This document shows, piece after piece, positions 3,087 through 48,572 of a stretch of DNA of 64,000 bases. The notes below the pieces were generated by a model, which saw only the letters and a list, made by a program, of their open reading frames with translations, made no database searches and was not told the origin of the DNA. Source of the DNA: Raja brachyura (taxonomy: Eukaryota); contig OY740812.1 of assembly GCA_963514005.1 (NCBI GenBank), positions 30,876,001-30,940,000 on the forward strand, given 5' to 3'. The first letter of the stretch is position 1. Every line of letters starts with the position of its first letter. Both the position numbers and the translations under genes were made by a program.

Positions 3087-3165
3087 ATGGCTTTCTTTAC
3101 TGGGAAATCATGTCCAGTATTAAATATCCTGATCTTCACGCTCGCCTTTACAAGTTGGATACTTG
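3087..3165 (+). CDS. CD79B: CD79B coding exon 1 (signal peptide MAFFTGKSCPVLNILIFTLAFTSWIL-G)
   Basis: First in-frame ATG after upstream TAA at 3003; hydrophobic leader; strong donor G|GTAAGT at 3165/3166, phase 1, matching the phase-1 Ig exon. Not in the ORF track (too short). Confidence 0.82.
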
Positions 3166-5622: not shown

Positions 5623-5893
5623 ATGTTCATGGCATTATAGAGTAATCCCTTCTCTTGCTTTAATAATACCAATCACTGGACCTTCCAGTTTTTTTTTCGC
5701 CGCCAAAAGAGCTGTACTTCTCACATCCAATAAACAGGGTAACTTACAATGCATCGATATGAACTTTGAATTTTCCATCATTAGGTTTCTTCTCTCCCAG
5801 ACTACCTCCACCCCTCCTCACCTTTCACCCCACCCAATCTTACCCACCCCTTCCATCTCCTGTACCCCCACCTATTTCTCTCCTTCACCCAAA
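5623..5893 (+). repeat. Left copy of ~270-bp direct duplication flanking the L1
   Basis: atgttcatggcattatagag...ccttcacccaaa, repeated at 7495-7778 with scattered substitutions and one ~13-nt indel. Confidence 0.92.
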
Positions 5894-7493
5894 ACATAAG
5901 AAAGGATATAGAAAGATGGTCCACCTACCCAATGGATTTTAGTAGTAAGATAAATGTGGTGAAAATGAATATTTTGTCAAGGCTATTGTACTCGTTTCAA
6001 TCTCTGCCAATTGAGGTACCATTAAAACAATTCACGGAATGGGATACATTAATATCTAGATTTATTTGGGGAGGAAAGAAGGCCAGAATTCGATACACTA
6101 CTCTACGGTTACCAAAGGACAAAGGTGGAATGGCACTTCCAAATTTTAGGATATATTTCTATGCAGCCCAACTTCAACCACTAATTAATTGGTGTGAGGC
6201 CAGCTATATAGCTAGGTGGAAAGAGATTGAGACATATATCCCTGACTTCCACATCCAAACACTTTTGGGAGAAAAAGCGCTTCCTGGACATATCAGGAGT
6301 ATAATCGATCCAATAACGATATTTACTTTAGAAACCTGGTTCACCCTTACCAGACAACTTAAACTGAATAAACGACAAAAAGTTTTAAGATGGATAGCTT
6401 TGGATAATGAATTTAAACCAGGGATGTATGACTCAACATTTAAAGAGTGGATGAAGAAAGGAATGACTGCATTTTGTACTGTTATTGAAAATGGAGATCT
6501 AAGAAGTTTTCAAGATTTGAAGGATAGATTTGCACTTCGGAACCAAGACTTGTTAAGATACTTCCAACTGAGAGATTATTACAATAAAAAGGTAAAAAGG
6601 GAGGCACTAGAAGAAAATAATCCAGTGATAGAAGTGATAGTTAGTGCGTATCATCAAAAAACATTAAGGATTATTTCTAAACTTTATCATAGTTTAATGG
6701 AATGTCAAGCTAAAACTACATTTACGTAACATTCAAGTGGGAAAAGGAATTGAACATCACAATCTCAGAAGAAGAATGGCATCATATGTGTGTAACACTA
6801 CAGACATCCACTAATTCACAAAATTGGAGAGAATTTAATTGGAAAAATTTGATTTGTTTCTTTATTACGCCTAACATAAAGAGCAAGCAAATTCTAAGGC
6901 AGCAAACCTGCTGGAGGCAATGTGGTCAAACAGATGCAAATCATGCACATATCTTCTGGAGTTGCCCAAAAATAGGACCATTTTGGGACAGAGTGAATTC
7001 AGAATTAACGGAGGTATTAGGATATGCAGTCTGCAAGAAGTGTTCCATTTTATACCTGGGTAATATAAATACAGTGGTGCTGAAGGAAGACCATTACTTG
7101 GTTAAAATCCTACTCACAGCTGGCAGAAAGGCCATTACAAGAAACTGGCTTGGAGCGGACACACCCAGACTTAGACAATGGTTAGACATAGTACAGGAAA
7201 TATTTGTCATGGAGAAAATGACATATTCTCTAAGAGTGAAAGAAGAAAATGGGAAAAATGGATTAGGTATAGAAATAAAGACATCAACACTGTATAATTT
7301 TATAGACAATAATGTAAGTTATTGGAAAATGTTTTAATATGAAAATAGTTCTGTATACTGCATCATTAATTGTAAACTGAACCTCCTGTTACACTGTTGT
7401 ACGTTTCACTGTAATGTTGTATGTTTCGTTGTTATATTTGTGTTTTATTTGTGTATACATAAAAGCAATAAAAACTAAAGTGGAAAAAAAAAA
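5894..7493 (+). mobile_element. 5'-truncated L1-clade LINE (ORF2 C-terminal part, frameshifted) with poly(A) tail
   Basis: ORFs 5932-6729 and 6750-7337: '[13 protein letters not shown]', '[13 protein letters not shown]', CCHC knuckle 'CWRQCGQTDANHAHIFWSC'; AATAAA 7467-7472 and A-tail 7484-7493. Confidence 0.9.
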
Positions 7494-7494
7494 G

Positions 7495-7778
7495 ATGTTC
7501 ATGGCATTATAGAGTAATCCCTTCCCTTGTTTTAATAATACCAATCACTGGACCTTCAAGTTTTTTTTTCACCCCCAAAAGAGCTGTACTTCTCACATCC
7601 AATAAACTGGGTAACTTACAACGCATCGGTATGAACTTTGAATTTTCCATCATTAGGTTTCTTCTCACTTTACCCCCACTCCCAGCCTACCCCCGCCCCT
7701 CCTCACCTTTCACCCCACCCAATCTTACCCTCCCCTTCCATCGCCTGTACCCCCACCTATTTCTCTCCTTCACCCAAA
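7495..7778 (+). repeat. Right copy of the direct duplication flanking the L1
   Basis: Starts immediately after the L1 A-tail; matches 5623-5893. Confidence 0.92.
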
Positions 7779-10700
7779 CCCCCTCCTGCTACTCACCACC
7801 CTCAGGCTTCACAATCAGCAACTCTTCAAATCTGTCTCACACCTTTCATTCTTATCTCTGGCCTTTGTTCCAACTATCTGCCCGTCAACCCACCTGCCAT
7901 GTGTTGTCCTGCCCCACCCCTTTTCCAGCTTTCTTCCCCCCCTCTGAAACTGTTTCTCAGTATTAAATAATCTTCTTTTATTCCTACTAATTCATTTCTC
8001 ACCCAATTGTTGAAGTGTCTGGAGGATGACTACAAATCCAGCAATTTATCTCAGCAATTGCGAGAAACATTTAGGGCGGTACGGTAGAATTGCTACCTTA
8101 CAGCGCCGGAGACCCATGTTTGATCTTGACTACTAGTGGTATTTATACAGTTTGTACGTCCTCCCTGTGACTACATGGGTTTTCTCCAGGATCTCTGGTT
8201 TTCTCCCAAAATTCCTACAAGTTTGCAGGCTAATTGGCTTGGTATAATTGCAAATTGTGTACAAAGATTGCTGGACAGCACAGACTCGGTGGGCCCAAGG
8301 GCCTGTTTCCGTGCTGTATCTCTAATTTAAAAAAACTAAAATCTGGATCGGGGAACACAATACAGTCTAGGGTATTAAAGAAGCAATTTCGCTTTTTTCT
8401 CCAAAAGATTTTTTAACACATCTTTATTTTCTTCCTATAAATGTTCAGCATAATTATTGATCCAAAATATGAAAAACATTTCAACATGAACACCTTACAT
8501 TTATAGCAAACAGGAAGAGGCCACAGTAGAAAAAATAGATGCATTTACTGATTTGTAAGTTTCTTAGTACTGGAAATGATAACTATCTCACTGCAGTTTT
8601 TGAACCATGTTAGATTGGGTACAAGAAGGCGCCTCAAGTTACAGCTCAGTAAACAGTGATTCCTGTGAAAATAGACAGGAAGAAGCAGTAGATATCTCTG
8701 CGCAGCATGAGTTTTAAGAAGTTCCTGTCTGAACATAACTTCTTTGTGCATCTGTGATCTTGCCCAAGAGACAACATTCTGTGGTCTCAGTGCAAACCTG
8801 AAGTGAGATAACGATGTACCAGTACACACAGTAATGGAGCACCTGCTCTGCTCGAATCTGAAGAACGGTCTCGACCTGAAACATCTCCCATTCCTTCTCT
8901 CCAGAGATGCTGTCGGTCCAGCTGTTACTCCAGCTTTTTGTGTCTATCTTCAGTGTAAACCAGCATCTGCAGTTCCTTCCCACACACATGAATGGAACTG
9001 TCCCCACCCAATTGGAAAGTAGCCTATAGACAACAGAGGGAATAAATTGTTTCACCTGTGATTAAACCTTGTCAGTAACTGAAGGAAATATTTGTTGACC
9101 GTTGGTACCTTAATGTGCTCACATTTAGAGAAACAACAAATTGCAGATGTTTTTTGACAAAAAGGATCCCAACTGGAAACATCATTTACCATGTTCTCCA
9201 TTGATGATGCTTGACCCACTGAGTTACTCCAGCACTTTATGTTTTTTGTTGTACTCACATTCAGCTTAATTGTATTACATTGTCAACCAATCCTCACTTG
9301 AACATGGATAAATGAGAAGGGGAAAATGTACAACTACCTAGAACAATCACTCTCCAAGTTTATAGATCGTCACAGACAGGCACGTGCCGTCAGGGTAGGC
9401 AAGGTAGGCACTGCCTACCCTGACTAAAATTATGAAATGGCAATTTTTAAATATAAATAGTAAAGGCATGGGAGAATTATGCCTGTCTAAGAGATCGATC
9501 TCTTAGGTAGGCATAATTCTCCGTGCCTTTCACCCGCAGCGCTTGTAACACGGGAAGCTCTGTGCAGCCCCCGTGCCGTCAGCGCTGCCTGAGCCGTCAG
9601 ATTGAATGGGAGCTGAAGGCAGCAGAAATTCTGCCTTTGCAGCACTGCGCATGTGCATCATCTTTCTGCGCATGCGCATCGCGAGTTTCTTGGCGGGATG
9701 TTCAAATATGGATTGCCATTATTTTAATAGTATCTTAGCAAACAAATGGAGAATGGACTTAATGTACCAATAATGTGGTAAGTGCATTTCTTTGTGCTTT
9801 ATGTTTTTAAATACTGTAGTTCCCAGGGTGGGGGGAGAGCTCCGTTCACAGTGTTTGGGCAGTCTGGCGTTGTGAAGGAGGGGATCGGGGTCAGTAACCC
9901 ACTTGCCACGCTCCGGTCTGAGTGCAGGTGAGATGGGACTAGGTGAGAGTAAAAGTGTGTGAGGGGTGAGAAGTCCATGCCGGGTGCCGGCCGGCCGCAG
10001 CCGCTGTTCAGATTGTTGGGAGACGGAGCTCAGGGTTCGCCTCTTGAGCTGCTTTGGTGCCCAGGCGTAAGTTGAGGTGGAAGGTGGTTGGGGGTGCGGG
10101 GGGGGGGGGGGGGCTCGTCTTCTGAAGAAGGATCTCGACCCGCTGAATTACTCCAGCAGTGTTAAAGAAGGAACTGCAGATGCAGCAAAATCGAGCGTAC
10201 ACAAAATTCTAGAGAAACTCAGCGGGTGCAGCAGCATCTATAGAGCGAAGGGATGGGTGACAGGAGGGTCTCGACCTGCTGAAATTCTCCAGCATTTGGA
10301 TCTAAACATCACCCATCCCTTCCCTCTAGAGATGCGGCCTGTCCCACTGAGTTACTCCAGCTTGTGTGTGTCTATCGTTGAATGGGTGACGTTTCGGGTC
10401 AAGACCCTTCTTCGGACTGAAAATAAAACTTGCCTCGCGTGAAGCGGCTTGTAAATTAAAACATAAAAACAAGAAATGCTAGACTCATTTATGTGCTCCT
10501 ATTCATTTACCTGGCCTGTTGCTGTCCTCCCTCGTCCACCGTGAGCGCTGGACAACTCACTGGGTGCAAAACTCCGCTGCATTCCGGGCGGAGGGCGATG
10601 ATCACCCGACTGACCGGCAAGTAGAGGCGGCGGGTCGGTCAAGCCCAGCTCCCCGCCACCGGGATAAACACCACTACTGGAGTAAACTCAGCGGGATCTC

Positions 10701-11144
10701 TGGAGAAGTCTGAAGTAGGGTCTCGACACGAAATCTCACCCATCCCATCTCTCCAGAGATGCTGCCAGTCCCTCGGAGTTACTCCAGCATTGTGTGTGTC
10801 TATGGGTTACACAAAAAGCTGGCGAAACTCAGCGGGTGCAGCAGCATCTAAGGAGCGAAGGAGATAGGCGACGTTTCGGGTCGAGGCCCTTCTTGTGTGT
10901 GTCTATCTTCGGTGCAAACCAGCATCTGCAGTTCCTTCACAATCCCACACTCTCGGGCCCAGGGGGTGGATGGAGCATCACACGTGGATACAACCCACTC
11001 ACTGCCCAGACTTGCCCCTCCGGCAGGTCTTTAACCGCGTCCTAAAGCCATTCGTGTTAAAGAAGGAACTGCAGATGCTGGAGAATCGAGGGTTACACAA
11101 AGCTGGAGAAACTCAGCGGGTGCTGCAGCATGAAGAAGGTCAGC

Positions 11145-11180
11145 AGGTCTGAAGAAGGGTCTCGACCCGAAACGTCGCCT
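11145..11180 (+). ncRNA. Minimal type I hammerhead-ribozyme motif (Penelope pLTR-type)
   Basis: AGGT-CTGAAGA-A-GGGTC-TC-GACCC-GAAAC-GTC-GCCT: stem I AGGU/GCCU, CUGANGA core, stem II hairpin, GAAA, GUC triplet. Activity not shown. Confidence 0.7.
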
Positions 11181-11552
11181 ATCTCCTTCGCCCCTTCGAT
11201 GCTGCTGCACCCGCTGAGTTTCTCCAGCTTTTTGTGTAACCCCCATCTCTCACCTGCCGTTCGACGGCTTCGCTCATGTCAACCGCGTCCCGCAAATCCT
11301 TAAATTCCCACAGCCAAGTAACCTAAACTGGACCCGTGAACGCGCTGTCGGAATTTAAAGATTTGCGGGAAGCCGGCCGGCGAGCGGCAGGTGAGAGATG
11401 TTCAGACGGAGAGCACTGCCAGAGGTGAGTGGGGACCAGCAGAAGGGGCTGAAGTGGCAGGGTCCCGGCGGCCACTCGCAGTCACCCGAGCTGCTTCCTT
11501 CCGCGGAAGTGGCGGCCAGTTCTGCTGTCCGTGTCCGGCAGGTGAGAGATGG

Positions 11553-11752
11553 GGGTTACACAAAAAGCTGGAGAAACTCAGCGGATGCAGCAGCATCTAA
11601 GGGGCGAAGGAGATAGGCGACGTTTCGGGTCGAGACCCTTCTTCAGACTCAGTCTCAGTCTGAAGAAGGGTCTCGACCCGAAACGTCGCCTATCTCCTTC
11701 GCCCCTTAGATGCTGCTGCACCCGCTGAGTTTCTCCAGCTCTTTGTGTAACC
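11553..11752. repeat. Near-perfect ~200-bp inverted pair of Penelope-derived mini-elements with a hammerhead core on each strand (11615-11650 minus; 11656-11691 plus)
   Basis: gggttacacaaaaagctggag...cttcagact / cagtctc / agtctgaag...ctttgtgtaaccc; arms are reverse complements with few mismatches. Confidence 0.88.
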
Positions 11753-13118
11753 CTCGATTCTCCAGCATCTGCAGTTCCTTCTTTAACACGGAGGGTGAGA
11801 GATGTTCAGACGAAGAGCACTGCCAGAGGTGATCAGAAGGCGCTGAAGAGCAGTCGGTTCTGGTGTTGGGTCCCGGTGGCCGCTCGCACCCGAGCTGCTT
11901 CTATCCCCGGAAGTGGCGGCCAGTTCTGCTGTCCTTGCCCGGAGCGCTGCGGCAGCGGTGAGTGAGTTTGATATGATCTCTGTCCCCCTCCTTCTCAAAA
12001 CTTCTCCCTTCTCGCATATTTAACCCCTGCCACAGGCTCCCCACACGCTGTGAAAGGAACTCCCCCTCCAATTGGACCCTTGAATTAGTATTGTCATTCC
12101 ATAAGATGACAACTGATTCAACGTCCCGATGTGCTCCCGTTTTTCCCACCATCTCTCCACCTGCCTTCATCCTCCGTCCCCCACCCATTCAGTAATTAAA
12201 AAAATGAAGGAGATTTAGAACCCTTGGGAAATTTGAATTGTTACTTATTTTTATTTTTTTACGAAGAGAACAATCTGCGCATGCGCGGTTTTAAGATTTT
12301 TTGAAAGCCGGCTGACTGCCTACCCTGAGTAATTACTCACGGCACGTGCCTGGTCACAGATTACATCACAGCATTGCCACGTTACCACATGTAATATATC
12401 AAATGCTAAACACTATCATGCATTCAGCACAAGTTTGCTGCATTATCATGGTCACTCATTAAGCACTAATTTGCTGGTATTGTTATTTGACCAATTTAAT
12501 CATGCCTTCCCACTGGCCACTTGTTCTACAAAGGTATATACACTAGAACAAATGGATAAAGCTAGATCAAACGATTAGGTGGGAATCATCTTGGAAACCT
12601 ACAATGCATTTATTTGATTATACTGGCCCCCTTCCTCCAGGGCTGCATGCGGAATTTAATCTGAGAGAAATATAATCATTTGTGTGAGATATTGACCATT
12701 TATTTTCAGACCCAGTGTGTGAAGGATATGGTTAGTGTGAGGGGATCTCCGGTCGGTGTGGACTCAGAATGCCGAAGGGCCTGTTTCCATGCTGTATCTC
12801 TAAACTAAATAAAACATGAAGTCCATTCACTTTCTCCACAGCAAATATTCAGATACAGGTACTCACATGGATCCAAGCTACAAAGCTCTTTTGTGGGGTG
12901 TGGGGAAAAAGCCCTTTCTTTCTCGATCCCCCTCCTTCACCACTTTCCCAGTACATTGATGATTATATTAGCGCTGCTTTGGATTCTTATACAGAACTTG
13001 AAAGTTTAATTACCATTGTTGCTAACCTCAACAATTATTGCTCTGACTTTCGCAAGGTTCCTTGCTCAGATTCCCTTTCCATTTCTTCACCTCTGGTCCT
13101 CCACTTCAGGATTACTTA

Positions 13119-13419
13119 AGGGCCTGTCCCACTTTCCCGAGTCCTCTGCCGAGTTGAAAGGACCATAAAAAAAAAAATTCAAGATTTTTGTGTTCTATGA
13201 ACTCCTCCTCCCGACTATCTTTTTACTCATGGACTTTTTTGTCATGCTGGAAAAAACGTCCCGACTTACCTGATGGCCCCAGTACCTACGGTTGACATAA
13301 CGAGCCGCTACGATATATCTACGGACTCCTACGGCCTCGCTACGGACATTCTCCGAGTTTGAATCGAGGGGAAAACTCAGGAGAATTTGTGAGGAACTCG
13401 GGAATGTGGGACAGGCCCT
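13119..13419. mobile_element. PIF/Harbinger-type MITE
   Basis: TIR AGGGCCTGTCCCAC (13119-13132) / GTGGGACAGGCCCT (13406-13419); TTA on both flanks (3-bp TWA TSD). Confidence 0.88.
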
Positions 13420-13673
13420 TTAGTGATTAATATCCATTGCAAGTCCATATAACTGTGCAGGACAGTTCTAGTGTACAGGGTGATTGCTGGTCAGAGTGGA
13501 TTCGGTAGGCCAATGGGCCTGTTTCCACGTTGTATCACTAAAGTCCAAAATCTAATAGTCTAATTAGTTTAGTCACCAATAATGTGTGAAAATTTGGTGA
13601 TGTCAAGTCGACTTCTATTACTTTAAATCATTGCAGGAAAGAAATACATGTATATTGTCTGTTTTGCTTTCAG

Positions 13674-13973
13674 GTGTGTTCTGTGCGGAGCAGAAGGTCA
13701 AGTACTCTGAGCCGTACCGCGCTGTTATCAAAGGAAACAATGTGACTCTGCGGTGCTCCTTTGACAACTTACCTGATGACAATAAGTGCCACATCAAATG
13801 GTATAAAGACGGAAAAACCCCCATTGAATTGAAAGGCACAACAAACAACAACTGTGAAGCCTTGCTGAGAATTTACAATGCAAAGACATTTCATTCAGGG
13901 ATTTACTACTGCGAATTGCAAACAAACACCAAATCGGTAGTCCAGTGTGCAGCAGAATTGAGCGTGCAACCAA
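13674..13973 (+). CDS. CD79B: CD79B coding exon 2, extracellular Ig domain (300 nt, phase 1-1)
   Basis: Acceptor tctgttttgctttcag|, donor A|GTGAGT; encodes VTLRC...IKWYK...LLRI...SGIYYC...VVQCAAELSV (B-strand Cys, C-strand Trp, F-strand YYC, G-strand Cys matching the Ig-beta interchain Cys in 'QGCGTELRV'). Confidence 0.92.
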
Positions 13974-16390
13974 GTGAGTAAAAGCAATATCCTATCAGGA
14001 TGCTCACCTGCTGTTTCAACATTTTTAGAATACACATCTTTAAGTTCATAATTTTTCTTTCATAACTCATGCATATTCCAACATCTGCAATTTTATTTGT
14101 TTTCCATGAATTCCTCTTTAGTTTAGTTTAATTTAGAGACACAGCACGGAAACAGGCCCTTTGGCCCACCGAGTCTATGCCGGCCGGCGATCCCTGTACA
14201 CTAGCAGTGTCCTGCACGCTAGGGACAATTTACAATTTTAGCAAAGCCAGTTAACCTACAAACATGCATGTTTTTAGAGTGTGGGAGGAAACCGCAACCC
14301 CCCGGAGAAAACCAACGCGGTCACAGGGAGAATGTGCAAACTCCGTACAGACAGCACCTAGGTGCCACATTTTCAGGGAAACTACTTCAGGAGATCTCGA
14401 GTGCGCTCTCGTAATTTTGCCCAAATTGAAGGAGGTGCTAGACCACTAGTTCCAGGAAAATCGATGGTGGGCCTGTATCATCACCAGTGGTTAGAGTAAA
14501 AATGCAATTCAGGCAAAACCCTTGTGGTGATGCTGTTCAATGTAAATTGGAAATAGCAGTGAAAATGTGCAAATTGGGATAAAGTAAAGTACACTGGACT
14601 GTGTCACCCTCATTTACAAGGTGAAGTTTTTGGTCATCAGCACAGGCTGTTGTAGCAACCGCTGTCCCCATTGTTTGGCAATCCCAATTGTTGAGTGTCG
14701 TTTGCCTCCTCCTCTCAACACACCAGCCCCCATTGCACCACTCCCTGTCAACTCAAGGATTTCATTTGAACTCACCTGGTTCACAAGGAATGTCATGACA
14801 ACACTGTGTAAACTTTTTTTTTAACAGGCAAAATAATTGTATGTTCAGTATCGAAATACAACAGTTGAGAAAATCTGTCCTGCAACCAAATTTGATGGAT
14901 TAACACCAGACTTTCAACTAGTCCGGCTGACTCAGGATGTTGGTGGTGCTCAGATGGCAGATTGGACAACTATTGGATTTTACTGCCTTTGATACCCAAA
15001 CGCATTTAAAACATTTTTTCATTTTGATTTGATTCCAAAAATACAGCATAGAAACAGGCCCTTCGGCCCACCAAATCCATGCCAACCATCGGTTATTTAT
15101 TCACACTAGTTCTATGTTATCCCGCTTTTTCATCCATCCCCTGCATACAGAAAGCAATTTACAGAGGCCAATTAACCTACACAACCACACAACAGGAGCA
15201 CCGGAAGAAAACCAGACAGTTACAGGGAGAACGTGCAAACTCCACACAGACAGCACCCGAGGTCAGGATCGAAACTGGGCCTCTGCCACAATGAGGCATG
15301 GACTCCAGTAGTATTGGAATAATTTAAGGAAAGTTAGAGAAGGAAAGCTCTAGCGAATTTAGAGTATGCAGGAAGTGCAGTCCAATAAATTTAATGGAAG
15401 CATGGGAAACAGATTCTGAATGAAATTAAACAGGTTTAAAAGAAGTATGTGAAATGTCTCCAATGCGTTTATAGGGATTGCTCAAAATATGTCCGAGTTG
15501 GGGAGCCAGGGCCAGGTTAGTTTAAAATGAGTGCAGAATTGAGTGCCCTGGTAAGTTTAGAAGGAGGTGAGGAAAGAGGCACTTTAAAGGGTTTAAAGAG
15601 GATGGTAGGAACATCACGTTACAAGCCAGATGCCAAACCACTGAGATTTCAAAATAGTCGGATAATTAGACGTCTAGTTTAGTTATGGTGTCACTAAATT
15701 ATGTCAGGAAAATAAAATCTGAGCCAATATTCCAACACCTTCCAACCTTCTATCAAAACAGTACAATCAGAAAATGTTCCATTGAAACGTATTACTTTCA
15801 ATCTAATTTACTGTTTACATTGCGCCTCAGCTGAGAAGGAAATTGCAACTAGGTCAGATCTGTGCCCTTGAAAGCAACAAAAACTGTAGACTTTGTCAAT
15901 CCGTAAACAAAAACAAACAATACTGAAAAGTGCAGCTCAGGCAGAGAGAGAAATAAGGTTAATAGTGTCACCCAGCGTGGAAGCAGGACCTTCAGCCCAA
16001 CTTGCCAACATCTCCCATCTACACTAGTCCCACCCACCAGCGTTTGGCCCTTATCCTTCTAAACCTGTCCTATCCATGTACATGTCTAATTGTTTCTTAA
16101 ACATTGCAAGAGTCCCTGCTTTAACTACTTCATCTGGCAGCTCGTTCCACACCCACCATCCTTTGTATGAAAAAGCTATCCCTCAGGTTCCTATTAAATC
16201 TTTCCCCCCTCACCTTAAACCTATGTCCTCTGATTCTCCACTCCCCTACTTTGGGAAAGATACTTTGTGCTTCTACCCAATCTAATTATTTTATACACCT
16301 CTATAACATCACCCCTAATGTCCTGCGCTCCAAGAAATAGAGTTCCAGCCAGCTCAGACCCTCAAGCCCTGGCAACATCCTCATAAATCT

Positions 16391-22794: not shown

Positions 22795-23633
22795 AGGGCC
22801 TGTCCCACTGTACCAGGCAATTCAAGAGTTCTCCCGAGTTCTCGTCTGATTCGAGCTCATGTAACGTACGTAGCGGGTACGTAGGAGCTCGTGGATGTCA
22901 CGGAGCGGCTCGTACGAGTAACGGAAGTACTCGGGAAATCCGGTAAACTCGTGACGTTTTTTCAACGCTGTGAAAAATGTCCACGAGTAAAAAAATACTC
23001 GTGATGAAAAAAATTGTTACTTTTTACTCGTACGAGTCCCTATGTCCCCGCTACGTACATTACACGAGCTTGAACCAGAGGAGAACTCGGGAGAACTCTT
23101 GAATTACCTCGTACAGTGGGATAGACCCTTTAGGGGACTACAGGCGACTACAGGCGACTAGGCTGTTGCCACATGGTTGCCGGGGTGTCGACTGTATGAT
23201 CTCCTCAGTCGCCCAAAGAATCGTAGAGTCTTTCTGGTCGCCGCGGAATTTTGAAATGTTCAAAACTTTTCGGCAACCGTTGTCTTGATGCCAATGGGGG
23301 TAGACTGATGTAGCCTGATGTAGCATGATGTAGGTGCTGTCTCCAGGATGATGTAGGATGTCGCCAGGATGACGTAGGTAGTTGCCGGCGATTACATTGG
23401 TGAATTCCATTAAAGTTATATTACAGATGATTTAAATTTGAATGTTATTATAATATTTTTGGATCCACAATTGTATGTTAAAGTTATATTGTAGATAATT
23501 TGAATTTGAATGTTATTTTAATATTTTTGTATGCACTGTTGTATGTCGTACAGTCGCCGTTTTTTTGGCAACCTGCAATGACTATGACAGTCGTGGCAGT
23601 CGCCTAAAAAATTGCCTAAGTGGGACAGGCCCT
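22795..23633. mobile_element. Composite PIF/Harbinger MITE (complete MITE 22795-23129 fused to the right part of a second MITE family)
   Basis: Left TIR AGGGCCTGTCCCAC at 22795; internal right TIR ending 23129; outer right TIR GTGGGACAGGCCCT ending 23633; TAA at 22792-22794 and 23634-23636. Confidence 0.82.
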
Positions 23634-24483
23634 TAAATCTCCCGATTTCCTCCCGGAAATGTAGCAAAACACCGGGAAAATGGGGTAAATGGTCAATACC
23701 ACGTTTTCTCCAAATGACTGGCTGGGAATAGAGTAGAGAATAGAGAAAGCTCGTAAGATTTATCTGAATAACTCCTGACAGACATTTCCTCTTACGTATA
23801 TAATTAGTCATTCTCACCACCTTCCTGTGCACCAGGTGTCAGTGGAGCTTAAATGCAAATATGCTTGAGGAAGGTACAGTCCCTACAGAAATGACAACCT
23901 GCCTGGACGGCCCTAGAATCAAAGTTTAGTCACCTGAACACTTTGGTAAATAATCCAGAAGGAACGTATATGGTTTCTTGTGAAGGAAGGAACTGCAGAT
24001 GCTGGTTTAAACCGACGATAGACTCAAAGTGCTGGAGTAAGTCAGCGGGACAGGCAGCATCTCTGGAGAGAAGGAATGGGTGACGTTTCGGGTCGTGTCT
24101 GAAGAAGGGTCTCAACCCGAAAAGTCACCCATTCTTTTCCAGAGATTCTGCCTGTCCCACTGAGTTACTCTAGCACTTTGTGTCTGGTTTCTTCCCTTGT
24201 CACAAGAACAAGCAGGGCATGAGACACCACAATACAATGTGAATCTATTACAGGTATGATCTGGTGAAATCACTTGATAGATTAAGCAATAGAGTAGAGG
24301 GACATGATACAATATGCTTTGTAACCACCAATACTGATAGATCAATCATGCAGGTGGAGGGCAACAGTTCAGATGGAGATTGAAATCTGTGATGAATGCA
24401 GTCAGTATTCCTCACATATTGTGCTGAGATGGATCACAATGGTGTCCTGTTGTAAAAAATGCTTTTCCATATGTTCCCTTCAG

Positions 24484-24602
24484 AAACCACTGAAGTGAAC
24501 CAAAGGAAGACTGCGACCACAATGAAAGACATGTTGATTTTAACCCAGGGAATTCTGCTGATGCTCTGCCTCACTTTGCCGGGAATGTTGTTCTTTAACA
24601 AA
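24484..24602 (+). CDS. CD79B: CD79B coding exon 3, stalk + transmembrane (119 nt)
   Basis: Acceptor atgttcccttcag|, donor AAA|GTAAGT; encodes KTTEVNQRKTATTMKDMLILTQGILLMLCLTLPGMLFFNK, aligning to mammalian TLKDGIIMIQTLLIILFIIVPIFLLLDK with the Q-X10-P motif; same length and phases (1-0) as the human TM exon. Confidence 0.95.
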
Positions 24603-26069: not shown

Positions 26070-26123
26070 AACAACCAGATAAAAAAGGATAATGACGAAT
26101 CTGAGGCTTACCATATGTATGAG
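26070..26123 (+). CDS. CD79B: CD79B coding exon 4, membrane-proximal tail and first ITAM Tyr (NNQIKKDNDESEAYHMYE)
   Basis: Acceptor cttattctttacag|, donor GAG|GTATGA, phase 0-0; ends in HxYE like mammalian EEDHTYE, with the YE|GL junction conserved. Confidence 0.92.
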
Positions 26124-26369
26124 GTATGAAACAAGGGGGGTATTTTATATCTCAGCAAAAATGTCGATTATATTCATATGAATGTTATTTATGCTATTAA
26201 AATCAGCATAAACATTTTTATCAGTTGCACAAAGCATGGTTCGTGGGTCAACCTGTGGATTTGGTTTTTAACCAGATCATTCTGTAGCAATCGCAGCCTG
26301 GCAACTGGAGGGTGGTTGGAATCTAGAACACACATTTAAGAAGTATCTCAATAAACATTTGAGTTGCAA

Positions 26370-34935: not shown

Positions 34936-35031
34936 GGTTTGGAAGTTATGCAGACGGCCATGTACGAGGACATTGGCAACATGAGACAAACGGAAGACAA
35001 ATGTTCCACTGCTGAGCAGCCCAACGAGTAA
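34936..35031 (+). CDS. CD79B: CD79B last coding exon, ITAM C-half and stop (GLEVMQTAMYEDIGNMRQTEDKCSTAEQPNE*)
   Basis: Acceptor ttttgttttggtctag|; aligns to mammalian GLDIDQTATYEDIVTLRTGEVKWSVGEHPGQE; TAA at 35029-35031. Confidence 0.95.
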   Translation, partial: GLEVMQTAMYEDIGNMRQTEDKCSTAEQPNE

Positions 35032-36345: not shown

Positions 36346-36532
36346 ATTAAAGATTGTTTTGTGAATCATTGTTTCCTTTCGACTAACATCCACAAATCAT
36401 GCAGCCCACAAAAAGACTGAGCATAGATTGCCAGGTCTATCCACCACATCTATTCATTAGATGGTCCAACATTCACTGTTCACCCATCTCATGTAATTTA
36501 GTTTCTTCTTTACAGTCTAATTATAAGATATT

Positions 36533-37768
36533 ACTAGACTAAGTGGGACGCAATGGGTCCCAGCATCACACGGGAGGGCTGGTCCCCCAACGCAATATTC
36601 CACCTCTCCACCAATTCCAATATTGGTGGCCAGTGGGAAAGGGGGGGGGGGCTTTCTGGAGTGCTAGTATGGGTGTTGTGGGCTGAAGGGACTAGGTTCC
36701 AGAGGGCTAGTATGGGCATTGTGGGTTGAATGGATTTTTGGGCTGGCGGCTCAGTCACTCAAGCATGTTGTGCTGGCAGCTCATTCACGGCTGGTGGGCT
36801 GTCAGTTGACTCACGGCTATTCCCTGAAATTCCATTTCAAGCAGGGTGCAAGGCCACCAAATTCAAGTGCAGTTTCTTACTACTTCAAGCAGGTTGCAAG
36901 GCCACCAAATTCAAGTGCAGTTTCATACCATTTCAAGCAGGGTGCAAGGCCACTAAAGACAGCGAGTCCTGACCTGTCCCTCTTCCATCTTGCAGAGACT
37001 GAGCCACGCCCACGCTTCTGGGTTTTATAGTCCCTCCCCCCTCCCACCAGATGGCGTGATTGACAGGAGAATCTCAACACTTTTTAAACACTAATAACTC
37101 TTATTTTTCATCGAAGGGAAAAATCCTCAGCACCTGATGAGCAGAGTGGGACTGAGGAAGATGGCCAAAAATCACAGCCGTACGTGGTAGCGTTTTTTCA
37201 AAAAATAATATAAAGCACTAACAGGAAGTGGTCAAGATTAGACTTTGAATTGTATAGAAGGCAAGGCAACTTTAATTAGGCAACACAGCTTTAGCATTTC
37301 CAAACCAGAGGCAACACAGCTTTAGCATTTCCAAACCAAAGGCAAACCAGCTTTAGCATATCCAAACCAAAGGCAACACAGCTTTAGCATTTCCAAACTA
37401 TATTTTCAAGCCACATTAAGGGCACTGACAGGTCAGTAAAACCACTCACAGTTTAGTAGATATGTGTTCAGTGTTATTAACAGCTCAGACTGAGGGACAT
37501 GACCCTCTCGCTCCCCCATCTTGCAGAGACTGACTGAGGCACTGAACACTTCTGGGTTTTATAGTCCCTCATTGAGAATCTCAACATTTTTTAAACAGTA
37601 CTAACTCTTTTATTTTTAAACAATAGGATAAATCCTATTGTCCTGCGCAGTGGGGATGGGCTCTGAGTAAGATGGCAAAAAATCACAGCGTAAGTGGCAG
37701 TGATTTTTTTTAAATCAATGTACAGAACAACAGGAAGTGGTCAAGATCAGACTTTTTGTAATATAGAT
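36533..37768 (+). mobile_element. Non-autonomous Helentron/HINE-like element with internal minisatellites and duplicated 3' module
   Basis: Begins ACTAGACTAAGTGGGAC..GTCCC (small hairpin), ends ACAGGAAGTGGTCAAGAT...TATAGAT; same termini as 54036-55450; no TIR/TSD. The superfamily call is inference. Confidence 0.6.
37279..37398 (+). repeat. ~30-bp tandem repeat (GGCAACACAGCTTTAGCATTTCCAAACCAA) x4
   Basis: Directly visible tandem copies inside the 36533-37768 element. Confidence 0.9.
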
Positions 37769-43578: not shown

Positions 43579-43688
43579 CTTGTATCTTATTGCAGCTAAA
43601 GAGTAACTTTACTGGTGGAATTTTGTGTTGTTGATGGAGTTTCATAAAATTTAAGAAGTTAAGATGTGCATTGATTCAAGTTTTCAAG

Positions 43689-43858
43689 ATATGAAATAGA
43701 AATGAATGAATAGATAGTGGAGAACAGCCTCCACTGGGGGGGGGGCAAATCAAGTTATCAAATTGGGGAGCAAACCGCCAGGAGTGGTTAGGAAACATTT
43801 GTGGATGCTTAGGATGGTAAAAACTTGGAACTCGGCAAACAGCAATTGTTAATTTTAA
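43689..43858 (+). repeat. Left copy of 170-bp direct duplication flanking the second L1
   Basis: atatgaaatagaaat...gcaattgttaattttaa repeated at 48403-48572. Confidence 0.92.
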
Positions 43859-46800
43859 TTTCCCTTTAGAATTGCCACTGAAAAATGTAAATACATTGGA
43901 GTTTATGTGACTAGAAAATATACCTCTCTATTCCAAGCAAAATCTCCACCATTTATTACTAAATTAAATGCCCTTATTCAATTTTGGAAAACACTTCCTA
44001 TTTCCCTTATAGGTAGAGTAAATGCTACAAAGATGATTTTCCTCCCACAACTACTTTACCTATTTCAATCTATACCTATTTATCTCCCTAAAAGCTTTTT
44101 TAAAAAACTTGTCTCTGTGATTACAAACTTTATCTGGAATTATAAAACTCACAGAATTCACAAACGACATTTATGTAAACCTACAGAAAACAATGGATTG
44201 GCATTCCCCAATTTTATTTTCTAATACTGGGCAACTAATATTAAAAATTTAATCTACTGGATGGATGATACATGTCAACAAGTAAAATGGTTAAAAATGG
44301 AGAGGGAAGATTGTTCGCCTTTTAATATCGGCATGATTCTTCTTTCTCCAATACATCTGGGACTAGGGGAAAATAAATGGTCGGCATGGACTGGAAGGGC
44401 CGAGAAGACCTGTTTCCGTGCTGTAATTGTTATATGGTTATCTGAATAAATCAACGTATGAGAAAAATCCGATAATTCATGGCACCCTACGAATTTGGAA
44501 ACAGTTGAAATCAACTCTCAAATTGAGAAATTTTACTTCGGAGTCACGTGAGTGACTACGTGAAGACCCCGCCAGCACGCATACGTGACATATCGTCGAA
44601 TGCATTGCGAAGCAACAGGCAGGGAGGAGGGTCACTCCTCCGCCGGTAAGTTTAAAACGGACCTACAGGTGAGTATTTACTATCCTGAGGTCATTTTGCG
44701 GGCACTCTGTTGTGGTTTTTGTTACAGAGTACCCCACCATGGACAAGTCACGAACCAAGTCCAAACGGGCCGCTTCGAGACTGACTGCGGAGGACTGCAG
44801 GAACGCGGGCAGTCAGTAGTGGCCGACTTCTCCAGAGCTGCTTGTTGTTCAAACGGCAGCCCCCGACTTGCCGCCGCAACAGCCCGCAGGAGCACCTCGG
44901 ACTGGTGGCAAAGCCACCCAGAAGTCGGGAAAGCCCGTTGACTCGGCAGGGTCCGGGCTGGAAGATTCACCGCCCGCGGGAAGTGACGGCAGTCGATTAT
45001 CCGGCATGGAGCAGATGGTGGAGCAGTTGCTCCAACGTGACCTACTCCAGCAGGAGTCTGGTCACCGTGGGTCTCCTAACAGACCCACGGCAGCACCTTT
45101 TACAGGGCTGCCAAATGTCTCACCCTCTTCGCAGGGGAGCATAAGGAGTCAGGTCTGGGCTGACTCTGAAGAGGGGGATTTGGCAGAAGAATCCAACATC
45201 CTAGGGGTGCAAGAAGAGGAGCTACTCGGGATGGTGTCCAAGTTTGCGATGCCTTCACAGAAGGGACTGCCGTTGCAGCCACAGCTGACAGCCAGTATAA
45301 ATTACCTAACAACTCATCAGCTACAAGAACAGGCTTTGAACGACATGACAGCCAAATATCTAGCTCCAAAAAACTGCATCTCCCTCAATGTGCCTGCGGT
45401 AAATAACCCCATCTGGGGAAACATCGGTCCTGGCATCAGAAGCCAGGAAGTTAAAATGCAGAAACTACTGGCCTCTGGTATTACAGCTTTTGCCAGGTCA
45501 GTAGACGGGAAAGATATGTCGGAGGAGCAACAGGATTCCCTGGCACTCTTCTGTAATGTACAGTTTGAGATCAACTGTTTCAGGAAGAGTGTCACCCGAC
45601 CTACACTAAACCCAAAGTTTGCGAGGTTGTGTAGAACCAGCGGCGTACAGCTGCCTACTCTGTTGTTCGGGGACAACCTGCCCAAACAGGTAAAAGACCT
45701 CGAAGAAGAGGCAAAAGCCGTCGGCATGATTAAAGTGCCGGCCGCTACCAAGTCCTCATATACTCGGCGGCAGCACCGATACGCATCCACCAGCAGGCCG
45801 CGTTATCACAGGGAAAGAACAGCTGGTGAAAGCTTGAAGGCCGTACAACCTACACAAAAGTCTGTTTTAGGCCATGTCCCAGAACGGCCTTCCTAGAAGA
45901 TGCTCCAACCCCACACCACAACGCCTCCACCTCCCAGGAACCAAGGACGGAGAAAACCAACACAGCACCACTGGTAACCATGGAGGTAGGTTGGTCTGGT
46001 TGCCCTCGGAACATAGCATGTGTAACTTCTTCACAGGTTGGGGGAAGGTTACACTTGTTTAGGGCTGCATGGAGTTCTATAACTTCTGATCCTTTCATAC
46101 TGCTCAGTATTCAGGGATACAAAATTGAATTTGTTGAAAAACTCCTCCTTCCGGTTCAACATGCACCTAGCCGAAAGTTTGTGCTTTCACAAAAAGAGAA
46201 AGTGGAAGGTCATGCGGAACTGTTAAGACTACATACAAAAGGAGTAATTGAGAAAACCAAACATGAAGCTCTTGAGTTTGTATCAAACATCTTCACCAAA
46301 AACAAAAAAATGGTGGATGCCGCATCATTATTGATTTGACACAACTGAATACTTTTGTGCAGTACACCTACTTCAAAATGGAAACTTTTGTTACTGCCAA
46401 ACAATGAGTTTCCAAGGGGTACTTCATGGCTTGCATCGACCTAAAAATGCATATTACTCAATACCAAACGAGAAAGATCACCGCAGATATTTGAAATTTA
46501 TCTGGATGGGGCAGCTCTGGCAGTATAAAGCGCTGCCGAATGGATTAACATCAGCCCCCAGACTGTTTACTAAAATATTGAAACCAGCATTGGCGTTTCT
46601 TCGGAAACAAAAACATATTGTCGATGACATCCTAATTGTGGGGAAAACCCTGGAGTTGACCAAATTAGCTGTCTCAGCCACCAAGCTCCTAGTTCAAAAA
46701 TTGAGATTTATCATCCATCCGGACAAATTCAAGTCAATGCCTTCGGTGACTATGGACTATTTGGGGTTCACGATTGACTCTGTTCATATGTCTGTCTCTT

Positions 46801-48402
46801 TACCAAAGGACAAAGCAACAGACTTGACAGAGGCATGTAACAGCCTTGTTTGTGTCAGTAAACCATCTATTCAGCAAGTAGCCAGGGTAATTGGGAAGCT
46901 CGTGGCTGCCTTTCCAGCCACACAATTTGGACCCTTACATTACCAAAATCTACAAAGGGCCAAAATTGCAGCACTCAAACACCATGCTGGCCATTTTGGA
47001 ATTGCGATGGTGGATTAGCAATGTTCGACATTGCTCTAATCCCATCACAGTCACAAACCCTTATGCTCTGCCAGCGTTCACGGCTGGGGAGCAACCGATA
47101 CCACCTCCAGTTGCGGTGGTAGATGGAATGCACACGAGTTAACCTTACTTCAGACACTGGGTATCAATCATCTGGAGATGTTGGGAGCGTTTCACGGGCT
47201 TTGGGCTTACTGTTCAGGCATGCACCATCTGCATGTTCGCCTACAAATTGATAACACCACCGTGGTGGCATACATTAATCATATGGGTGGAATTAAGTCG
47301 ATATCTTATGATGAATTGGCCAATACAATCTGGCACTGGTGCATAGAAAGAAACATTTAAATATCAGCTACTTACCTTCCAAGTAAGCTCAATACAGTGG
47401 CGGACACCAGGTCACACATATTCAATGACAACACCGAATGGATGTTGGACAACCAGGTATTTACTGACATTGTAGCTCGGTATGGAATGCCAGATAACGA
47501 CTTTTTTGCATAATCACCAGATACCAGCATATGTTGCATGGGAACCAGACCCGGGGGCAGTAGCGATGGACGCTTTCTCGCTACACTGGGGGGATTTGTT
47601 TTTCTATACATTTCCCCCCTTCTGCCTCATCAGTCGGGTCTTGCGAAAAATTCACCAAGACTCCGCATCAGGTATTTTAGTAGTACCCGATTGGCCTACT
47701 CAGCCATGGTTCCCTGTGGTACTCGACATGGTCTCAGGACCATGTATTCCGATCTCCAAACGCCCGAGTTTGCAGGTACATCCTGTGACCGGAGAGAGTC
47801 CATGACCGAATGAACCTATTGGTTTGCAAGATATGAAAAGACCTCTCCTGGAATTTGGACTGTCGGACCGAACCATGAACATCATCGCAGCATCCTGCAG
47901 AGAGTCCACCAGGAAACAGCACCTCACCCATATTAAAAAATGGGAGGTATTTTGTACCAGGACAAACACTACTTACAACACAGCCACCATTACGGATGTG
48001 TTGGAGTTCCTGGCAAGTATACATTTTGATGAAGGCTTGAATTATAGTGCCATCAACTGGCACTATAACTCAAATTAAATCCGAAGCTACGATGGGTGAG
48101 GTGGAGGGGGGGATGGGGTGAGGTGAGGTGGAGGGGAAGGGGCAAGGTATATCTCCACGTCTTCTTTTCTTATTTCTTTTTCTTTCCGCTGCACTGCTTT
48201 GGTAGCTTAGGGTTGTTCGTTTCCATTTTATCTCTTCATTTTTTCTTTTCTTCTTTTCTTGCTTTCCCTTTTTTCTCTTTTCCCTTTAAAAAAAAATGTA
48301 GGTTATAAGGTTAAAAATGAAGCTGTACGATAATTGTATATTTGTCGATGCCGAGCGTTTTATCCTTATACAATTGCTTCTAATAATAATAAATAAATAA
48401 AT
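43859..48402 (+). mobile_element. 5'-truncated L1-clade LINE interrupted by a DIRS element (ORF2 part 43859-44530; 3' UTR/tail ~48057-48402)
   Basis: ORF 43907-44224 'LPISLIGRVNATKMIFLPQLLYLFQSIP...NFIWN...GLAFPNF'; (TAA)n/(TAAA)n tail at 48381-48402; flanked by a 170-bp direct duplication. Confidence 0.82.
44531..48056 (+). mobile_element. DIRS1-like tyrosine-recombinase retrotransposon, decayed and 3'-truncated (gag 44739-45896; RT/RNase H ~45980-47360; methyltransferase-like ~47400-47805; start of YR ~47824-48056)
   Basis: 5' end TTTTACTTCGGAGTCACGTGAGTGACTACG; RT motifs 'AYYSIP', 'QYKALPNGLTSAPRLFTK'; RNase H 'LQIDNTTVVAYINHMGG'; 'DAFSLHWG..FYTFPPF...LVVPDWPTQPWFP'; YR N-terminus 'RESTRKQHLTHIKKWEVFC...YSAIN'. 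Multiple frameshifts and stops. Confidence 0.9.
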
Positions 48403-48572
48403 ATATGAAATAGAAATTAATTAATAGATAGTGGGGAACAGCCTCCACTGGGGGTCCCAAATCAAGTTATCAAATTGGGGAGCAAACCGCCAGGAGTGAA
48501 GTTAGGAAACGCTTGTGGATGCTTAGGATGGTAAAAACTTGGAACTCGGCAAACAGCAATTGTTAATTTTAA
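48403..48572 (+). repeat. Right copy of 170-bp direct duplication flanking the second L1
   Basis: Begins right after the L1 tail; matches 43689-43858. Confidence 0.92.

Follow-up and report, generated by a model that had tools for sequence, protein, structure and literature searches.

Insertion of an L1 retrotransposon usually duplicates about 7–20 bp of its target. The length of this target-site duplication (TSD) peaks at 13–15 bp for the L1 clade in human, cow, opossum and zebrafish (Ichiyanagi and Okada 2008, cited in PMC4245944), and in human data from long reads the median is 21 bp (PMC12350158). Much longer TSDs have been recorded in cultured cells. TSDs exceeding 100 bp make up at most 10% of events in HeLa cells (Gilbert et al., cited in PMC5223499), compared with 57–91% in NER-deficient cells. 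De novo human L1 insertions in XPA, XPC and XPD cells have a median TSD of 1495 bp and include examples of 242, 275 and 277 bp (Servant et al., PMC5223499). The zebrafish L2-clade element ZfL2-2 produced a long TSD, of 1228 bp, in one of 25 insertions in DT40 cells (PMC2666801). Since long TSDs are known from cultured cells, the mechanism behind them is not new.

There is nevertheless no settled account of how the second target strand is opened: TSD length has been called clade-specific, yet it differs among cell lines and is greatly increased by loss of NER. A vertebrate with naturally long L1 TSDs would therefore be a natural experiment separating the element from the host. The genome surveys consulted worked with short duplications; one was limited to 5–30 bp and left longer TSDs for in vivo study (PMC2912911), and another source defines TSDs as 5–25 bp (PMC12016303). 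A term count in the accessible text of one review of vertebrate L1s returned no mention of sharks (PMC5381506), and in the literature searched, with most subscription papers and supplements outside it, long L1 TSDs were found neither in cartilaginous fish nor as a germline class.

The window considered here, a stretch of 64,000 nucleotides from the skate Raja brachyura, holds two 5′-truncated L1s, each flanked by copies of a long direct duplication (271–284 bp at site 1 and 173 bp at site 2). Both loci look like the long-TSD product already known for L1, and unlike its canonical insertion with a short TSD.

A truncated L1 in the first intron of CD79B

The forward strand of the window carries CD79B (3087–35031), with exons at 3087–3165, 13675–13974, 24484–24602, 26071–26124 and 34936–35031. 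A PDB search with the Ig exon alone did not name CD79B, and the TM and ITAM exons named it weakly (E=0.46 and 0.02). The identity is settled because a named skate protein, the CD79B-like protein of Amblyraja radiata, matches all five exons, at 24/26, 80/99, 34/38, 14/17 and 29/31 residues (80–94%). Intron 1 also contains a GC-rich island (9400–12350) with a palindrome of 26-bp arms (9471–9522), GCGCATGCGC motifs, a splice-donor-like site near 9777 and dense young Penelope-type tails in both orientations; the island is possibly an internal promoter.

The first L1 lies in this intron, where the initial annotation had placed it, in sense orientation between exon 1 and the Ig exon. The insert (5894–7494, forward strand; 1601 nt) is the 3′ part of a fish-type L1 and comprises post-RT ORF2, a 3′ UTR, an AATAAA signal (7467–7472), an A10 tail (7484–7493) and one extra G. 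It corresponds to amino acids ~764–1215 of full-length APE+RT L1 ORF2 proteins, with 57–59% identity; these references carry PF03372 and PF00078, and the named hits among them are teleost L1 proteins. The APE endonuclease, RT and ORF1 are absent through 5′ truncation. Neither the L1 fragments nor the reading frames of the duplicated unit had a Pfam hit, so the assignment to L1 is based on protein homologs. The ORF2 remnant has a frameshift near 6723, a second near 7247 (read by eye) and no nonsense codon, and no other copy of this L1 family occurs in the window.

On either side of the insert lies a copy of the same DNA, as the initial annotation had recognised. Local alignment matches the left copy (5623–5893, forward strand, 271 nt) to the right copy (7495–7778, forward strand, 284 nt, 13 nt longer than the left) over 271 columns with 13 substitutions and one 13-nt indel (blastn E=6e-115, unit against the 64-kb window). 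The divergence is 4.8% (95% CI 2.6–8.1%), comprising 7 transitions and 6 transversions distributed evenly along the copies (KS p=0.86). The length is thus far beyond the usual range, which agrees with what had been claimed.

The copies adjoin the L1 with gaps of 0 nt at both the left junction and the end of the A-tail. The exact abutment first claimed stands in this sense, although both ends are uncertain by a few bases. CAAA, the four nucleotides that close the left copy, could also belong to the L1 coding sequence, and between the A10 tail and the right copy stands a single G. A purine run (top strand) lies directly upstream of the left copy; with the extra G, it means that the duplication may begin 1–6 nt further left. 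In the L1 frame, the final bases of the left copy encode Gln and supply the opening base of an Asn codon. Gln-Asn spans the junction in P0212, the nearest homolog (79% over the first 80 aa), and in 4/36 homologs overall; Gln occurs at −1 in 14/36. These protein comparisons fit, and do not prove, a microhomology of up to 4 nt at the 5′ junction, and the CAAA is probably of this kind. Neither end is a canonical TTTT/AA site, and no clear first-nick motif is seen there.

The duplicated unit is, judging by its composition, a chance slice of the DNA of the locus, part unique and part old decayed retroelement, and not the end of an element. Its first ~110 nt have no other match in the window (best other E=2.5). 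A young dispersed repeat with the same boundaries, which the initial annotation had named as evidence that would count against it, was not encountered: a blastn search of the window gave no third copy, and the other matches are of 20 nt or less. Further along, a 44-nt stretch resembles the 3′ end of the window's Penelope-like GIY-YIG elements and is probably a decayed remnant of a GIY-YIG C-terminus (7606–7649, forward strand; counterpart 5737–5826). An nhmmer profile built from two other copies in the window detects it with E=1e-4 in the right copy and 0.006 in the left. In plain pairwise alignment against the window's Penelope, the right copy plus downstream DNA scored 84, not above shuffles (mean 69, max 115); the left copy was borderline (75 against a shuffle maximum of 74), and tblastn gave no significant support for a Penelope origin (E=0.24). 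The pyrimidine-rich DNA past 7778 may be a continuation of the Penelope 3′ UTR, its best match having an E of only 0.056.

A second L1 between direct copies

Self-comparison of the window disclosed a second pair of this kind, at 43686–43858 and 48400–48572. The initial annotation overlooked this L1 and its 173-bp duplication (43686–48572), and it is here that the interest lies. The left copy (forward strand, 173 nt) and the right copy (forward strand) differ by 9 substitutions in 171 columns and two 2-nt indels. The L1 between them begins with a 5′-truncated ORF2 (43859–44530, forward strand) that has one nonsense codon and is interrupted by a ~100-nt short repeat near 44341–44441. It is 73% identical to P0024 and about 60% to full-length APE+RT proteins. 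Its identity to the site-1 L1 is 40% (32/80 aa), and it belongs to another lineage, on a separate branch. The truncation points of the two L1s (5894 and 43859; profile positions ~790 and ~756) both fall just past the RT domain and lie no more than about 35 codons apart, a near-coincidence that, with n=2, may be due to chance.

Nested in the second L1 is a younger RT/RNaseH-like element (44530–48060, forward strand; ends approximate) with a truncated right end and Pfam matches to RVT_1 (E=6e-11) and RVT_3 (E=0.097), which we take to be DIRS-like. Beyond it, 48060–48399 (forward strand) is presumed from position and composition only to be the 3′ UTR and (AAT/AAAT)n tail of the second L1; it has no other copy in the window. 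The 5′ L1 part and this tail would then constitute one insertion, despite the nested element and an apparent deletion. As at site 1 the gaps are of 0 nt, with ORF2 following directly on the left copy and the A-rich tail running right up to the right copy.

The second L1 struck an older repeat, of which a third, independent copy is present on the reverse strand at 50645–50930. In this copy the upstream flank, one unit and the downstream flank follow without interruption. When the three copies are compared, 16 columns have the left and right copies of site 2 agreeing against the third, and the other two patterns account for 3 and 6 columns. The third copy thus serves as a proxy for the empty site and, as far as a paralogous copy can indicate, probably preserves the single-unit state that preceded the second L1.

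The ends of the site-2 unit are also informative. The left copy starts at a bottom-strand TCTT/GA, a variant of the TTTT/A-type site expected of a first nick, and ends at a top-strand TTTT/AA. The odds of the latter within 3 positions are 0.25% and of the TCTT/G class about 4%, both motifs having been noticed after the fact. They suggest that an endonuclease may have nicked each end of the unit.

With two loci to hand, it can be asked whether the copies arose as independent inserts of a dispersed repeat, or as Penelope pseudo-LTRs. Part of the site-1 unit is Penelope-derived and the site-2 unit lies within a dispersed repeat, as such an origin would have it. Against this, the first ~110 nt at site 1 go unmatched in the window, the site-1 copies are 95% alike yet barely detectable against other Penelope copies, and the site-2 boundaries fall inside the repeat, where the pair has its 16 derived columns in common. 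Within the window neither unit ends as an LTR or Penelope pseudo-LTR would, the site-1 unit being confined to a single locus and the site-2 boundaries lying inside an older repeat. An origin of this sort is scarcely plausible. An assembly artefact, in which filled and empty haplotypes were joined, could likewise yield the order unit, L1, unit. The copies are, however, 4.8–5.3% diverged with indels, compared with a nucleotide diversity of 0.002 in another species, the epaulette shark (PMC10587355); the window has zero N, and two loci are involved. The chance of such an artefact is close to negligible, and the initial view that the copies are old and no assembly echo is borne out.

Frequency in the window and age of the insertions

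Long closely spaced duplications are otherwise rare in the window. Only two non-overlapping direct pairs in the 64 kb reach 100 nt and 88% identity at a spacing below 10 kb, and each flanks one of the L1s. Searched with a profile of 36 full-length ORF2 proteins, the window yields post-RT L1 sequence at the same two loci only, and four further loci match weakly in the RT domain alone; the profile is blind to L1 pieces reduced to 3′ UTR. At both L1 loci (2/2) a duplication of more than 100 bp adjoins both ends of the insert, compared with 0/16 other retroelement pieces delimited by hand with approximate ends. These pieces are tentatively classed as 10 CR1-like, 3 L2/Rex-like and 3 Penelope-like. 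One of them has a 145-nt, 81% pair belonging to a multi-copy short repeat 530 nt away. Fisher's test gives p=0.007 with both L1s and p=0.06 without site 1, which was ascertained.

Several other arrangements in the window deserve record. A 5′-truncated Penelope-like element with RT and GIY-YIG hits (51985–53545) has a 14-nt TSD. An older, locus-specific direct pair (942–1093 and 2151–2290; 78%, 1057 nt apart, no further copy in the window) encloses several repeat pieces, with a similar short tail at the start of each copy. Related composite repeats with similar ends and internal tandem arrays (48-, 31-, 30- and 41-bp periods) are found at 36520–37760 and 54040–55450. Two palindromic elements (13123–13420 and 22797–23635) begin AAGGGCCTGTCCCACT and end in its reverse complement; by eye, they look like non-autonomous DNA transposons.

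A different kind of pair bears on the possibility that tandem duplications already existed and that the L1s inserted at their junctions. The window does hold one with a later insert: 11390–11538 and 11794–11942 form a tandem of ~150 nt units, 78% alike, into which a Penelope-type element later inserted, with head-to-head Penelope-type tails near the junction. There the insertion left an 11-nt re-duplication at the junction. At the 5′ junctions of the L1s, the corresponding re-duplication of the start of the unit is 0 nt at site 1 and a 4-nt match somewhere in a 65-nt interval at site 2. Prior tandems would further demand that an exact junction in ~550 nt was struck without a TSD, twice, and this origin is highly improbable.

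The site-1 L1 provides its own estimate of age. The divergence of the site-1 pair corresponds to a decay of 2.5% per copy, at which 1.8 nonsense codons would be expected in the 1353 nt of coding sequence; none is present (P0=0.16). At 5% decay the expectation is 3.7 (P0=0.03) and at 10% it is 7.3 (P0=0.001). Indels per nucleotide agree between the L1 and the copies (0.15% versus 0.18%). From the zero nonsense codons and the agreeing indel rates it follows that the site-1 L1 predates the duplication by little, if at all, and the nonsense test leaves a younger L1 possible. Near-identical family members from which the L1s could be dated directly were not found, the best reaching 59% at site 1 (longer proteins) and 73% at site 2, with short pieces at up to 77%.

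Dating by the divergence of the copies, in the manner of LTR pairs as was first proposed, is valid in principle, and the decay of the site-1 L1 agrees with it. At the mutation rate of the epaulette shark, 7e-10 per generation (PMC10587355), 2.5% per copy would amount to ~35 million generations, a figure set aside as it looks too old for batoids. An uncalibrated age of tens of millions of years or more is preferred. Where polarity could be set, private changes number 9 in the left copies and 3 in the right (p=0.15; 3 of the 12 polarised by eye), and the idea of an asymmetric decay was dropped at this p value.

These ages bear on a two-step origin, in which an L1 with a short TSD would have inserted first, and a microhomology template switch or repair between empty and filled alleles would later have truncated the L1 and duplicated the unit. 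The end structure alone fits a one-step event and such a later switch equally, and repair-mediated proximal duplications of up to 619 bp with 2–9-nt microhomology are known in vertebrate germlines (PMC2671141). The switch must, however, have occurred at both L1s, and a site-1 L1 not much older than its duplication argues against it, as does the end of the site-2 unit on an endonuclease motif. Moreover, 39 proximal repair duplications were inspected and a poly(A/T) tract was seen in none of them (PMC2671141). Two steps are an unlikely account, although the strongest of the alternatives.

Mechanism, host and known systems

The preferred reading, to which a probability of about 80% is assigned, is that each locus records a single L1 TPRT event with a very long TSD, completed at a distant second-strand end. 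In line with standard TPRT, a bottom-strand nick at the start of the unit would have primed reverse transcription on the A-rich tail of the L1. Synthesis of the cDNA would then have ended early, just 3′ of the RT domain, leaving the 5′ truncation that is observed at both loci. The top strand would have been opened 271–284 nt (site 1) or ~171–173 nt (site 2) downstream rather than ~15 nt. That distant end could have come from a second endonuclease nick or from replication or repair. Its 3′ end may have paired with the cDNA over 2–4 nt, a microhomology for which the support is at the protein level, and have primed the second strand. Fill-in between the nicks would have created two copies identical at birth, which have since diverged by ~5%. 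The distant second-strand nick or repair-coupled integration proposed in the initial annotation accords with the way in which long TSDs are usually modelled (PMC5223499, PMC2666801). In the proposal of Servant et al., the distal primer is a replication or repair end (PMC5223499), and L1 prefers S phase and the lagging-strand template (review PMC12503042); the end of an Okazaki fragment as the second primer is speculation. The product is a dated scar with no evident function.

A related possibility is a single event in which the cDNA end jumped to a nearby template, either the downstream DNA by strand invasion or, at site 1, the sense CD79B pre-mRNA, and copied back to the first nick, thereby generating the left copy. 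PMC2666801 considers jumps between templates at the 5′ ends of LINEs, and the intronic, sense-oriented L1 of site 1 would suit a pre-mRNA template. Site 2, by contrast, lies 3′ of the CD79B stop codon, where no host transcript was identified, and copying must have stopped exactly at the first nick twice. Such a jump is very unlikely; in its DNA version it merges with the preferred reading.

The finding of long TSDs at both of two L1s from separate lineages makes routine long TSDs in this host a testable possibility, and hints that it may complete such insertions in another way than mammals and zebrafish do. It is rated at a little under even odds that TSDs of 100–300 bp are common or normal in germline L1 insertion in this cartilaginous-fish lineage, across unrelated L1 lineages; the data suggest as much through one independent case (Fisher p=0.06). 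If so, the end of the second strand would be set by the host and not by the element. Candidate causes would be a global-genome NER that acts weakly on the TPRT flap, or else the end of the next Okazaki fragment or of the linker DNA, such an end predicting TSD lengths on the scale of the nucleosome. Each insertion would be datable from its own flanks, as LTR pairs are, and be open to precise excision by recombination between them, and the class would have been missed by TSD callers limited to 25–30 bp. Per-copy ages in slow-evolving genomes, small local duplications and a route to the precise loss of L1s would also follow. Should the genome-wide share instead be low, the two loci would be rare germline cases, well preserved, of what is already known as a minority outcome; a single such locus alone would be a minor curiosity.

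A number of parallels can be drawn with described systems. The two loci share with canonical L1 TPRT the 5′ truncation, the A-rich tail, a probable 5′ microhomology and the direct duplication of the target, and differ in that the duplication is about 12–20 times longer at both L1 pieces found. Germline proximal repair duplications are likewise closely linked (50–619 bp) with short microhomology; these arise without a new LINE insert and lack poly(A/T) (0/39), in contrast to the present copies, both of which adjoin an L1. ZfL2-2 in DT40 cells and L1 in HeLa cells, as described in the sources cited above, demonstrate that a long TSD can be a minority LINE outcome in repair-proficient cells, albeit in cell-culture events, whilst here it accompanies 2/2 genomic L1 pieces. 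NER-deficient cells resemble these loci in combining an A-tailed L1 with a direct duplication of more than 100 bp, a first nick that is often of endonuclease type (TCTT/g) and a model with a distal second nick (PMC5223499). There, as reported, the insertions are somatic events of an engineered human L1 in repair mutants with a median TSD of 1495 bp. Here, they are natural genomic copies, about 5% diverged, of two fish-type L1 lineages with duplications of 173 and 271–284 bp.
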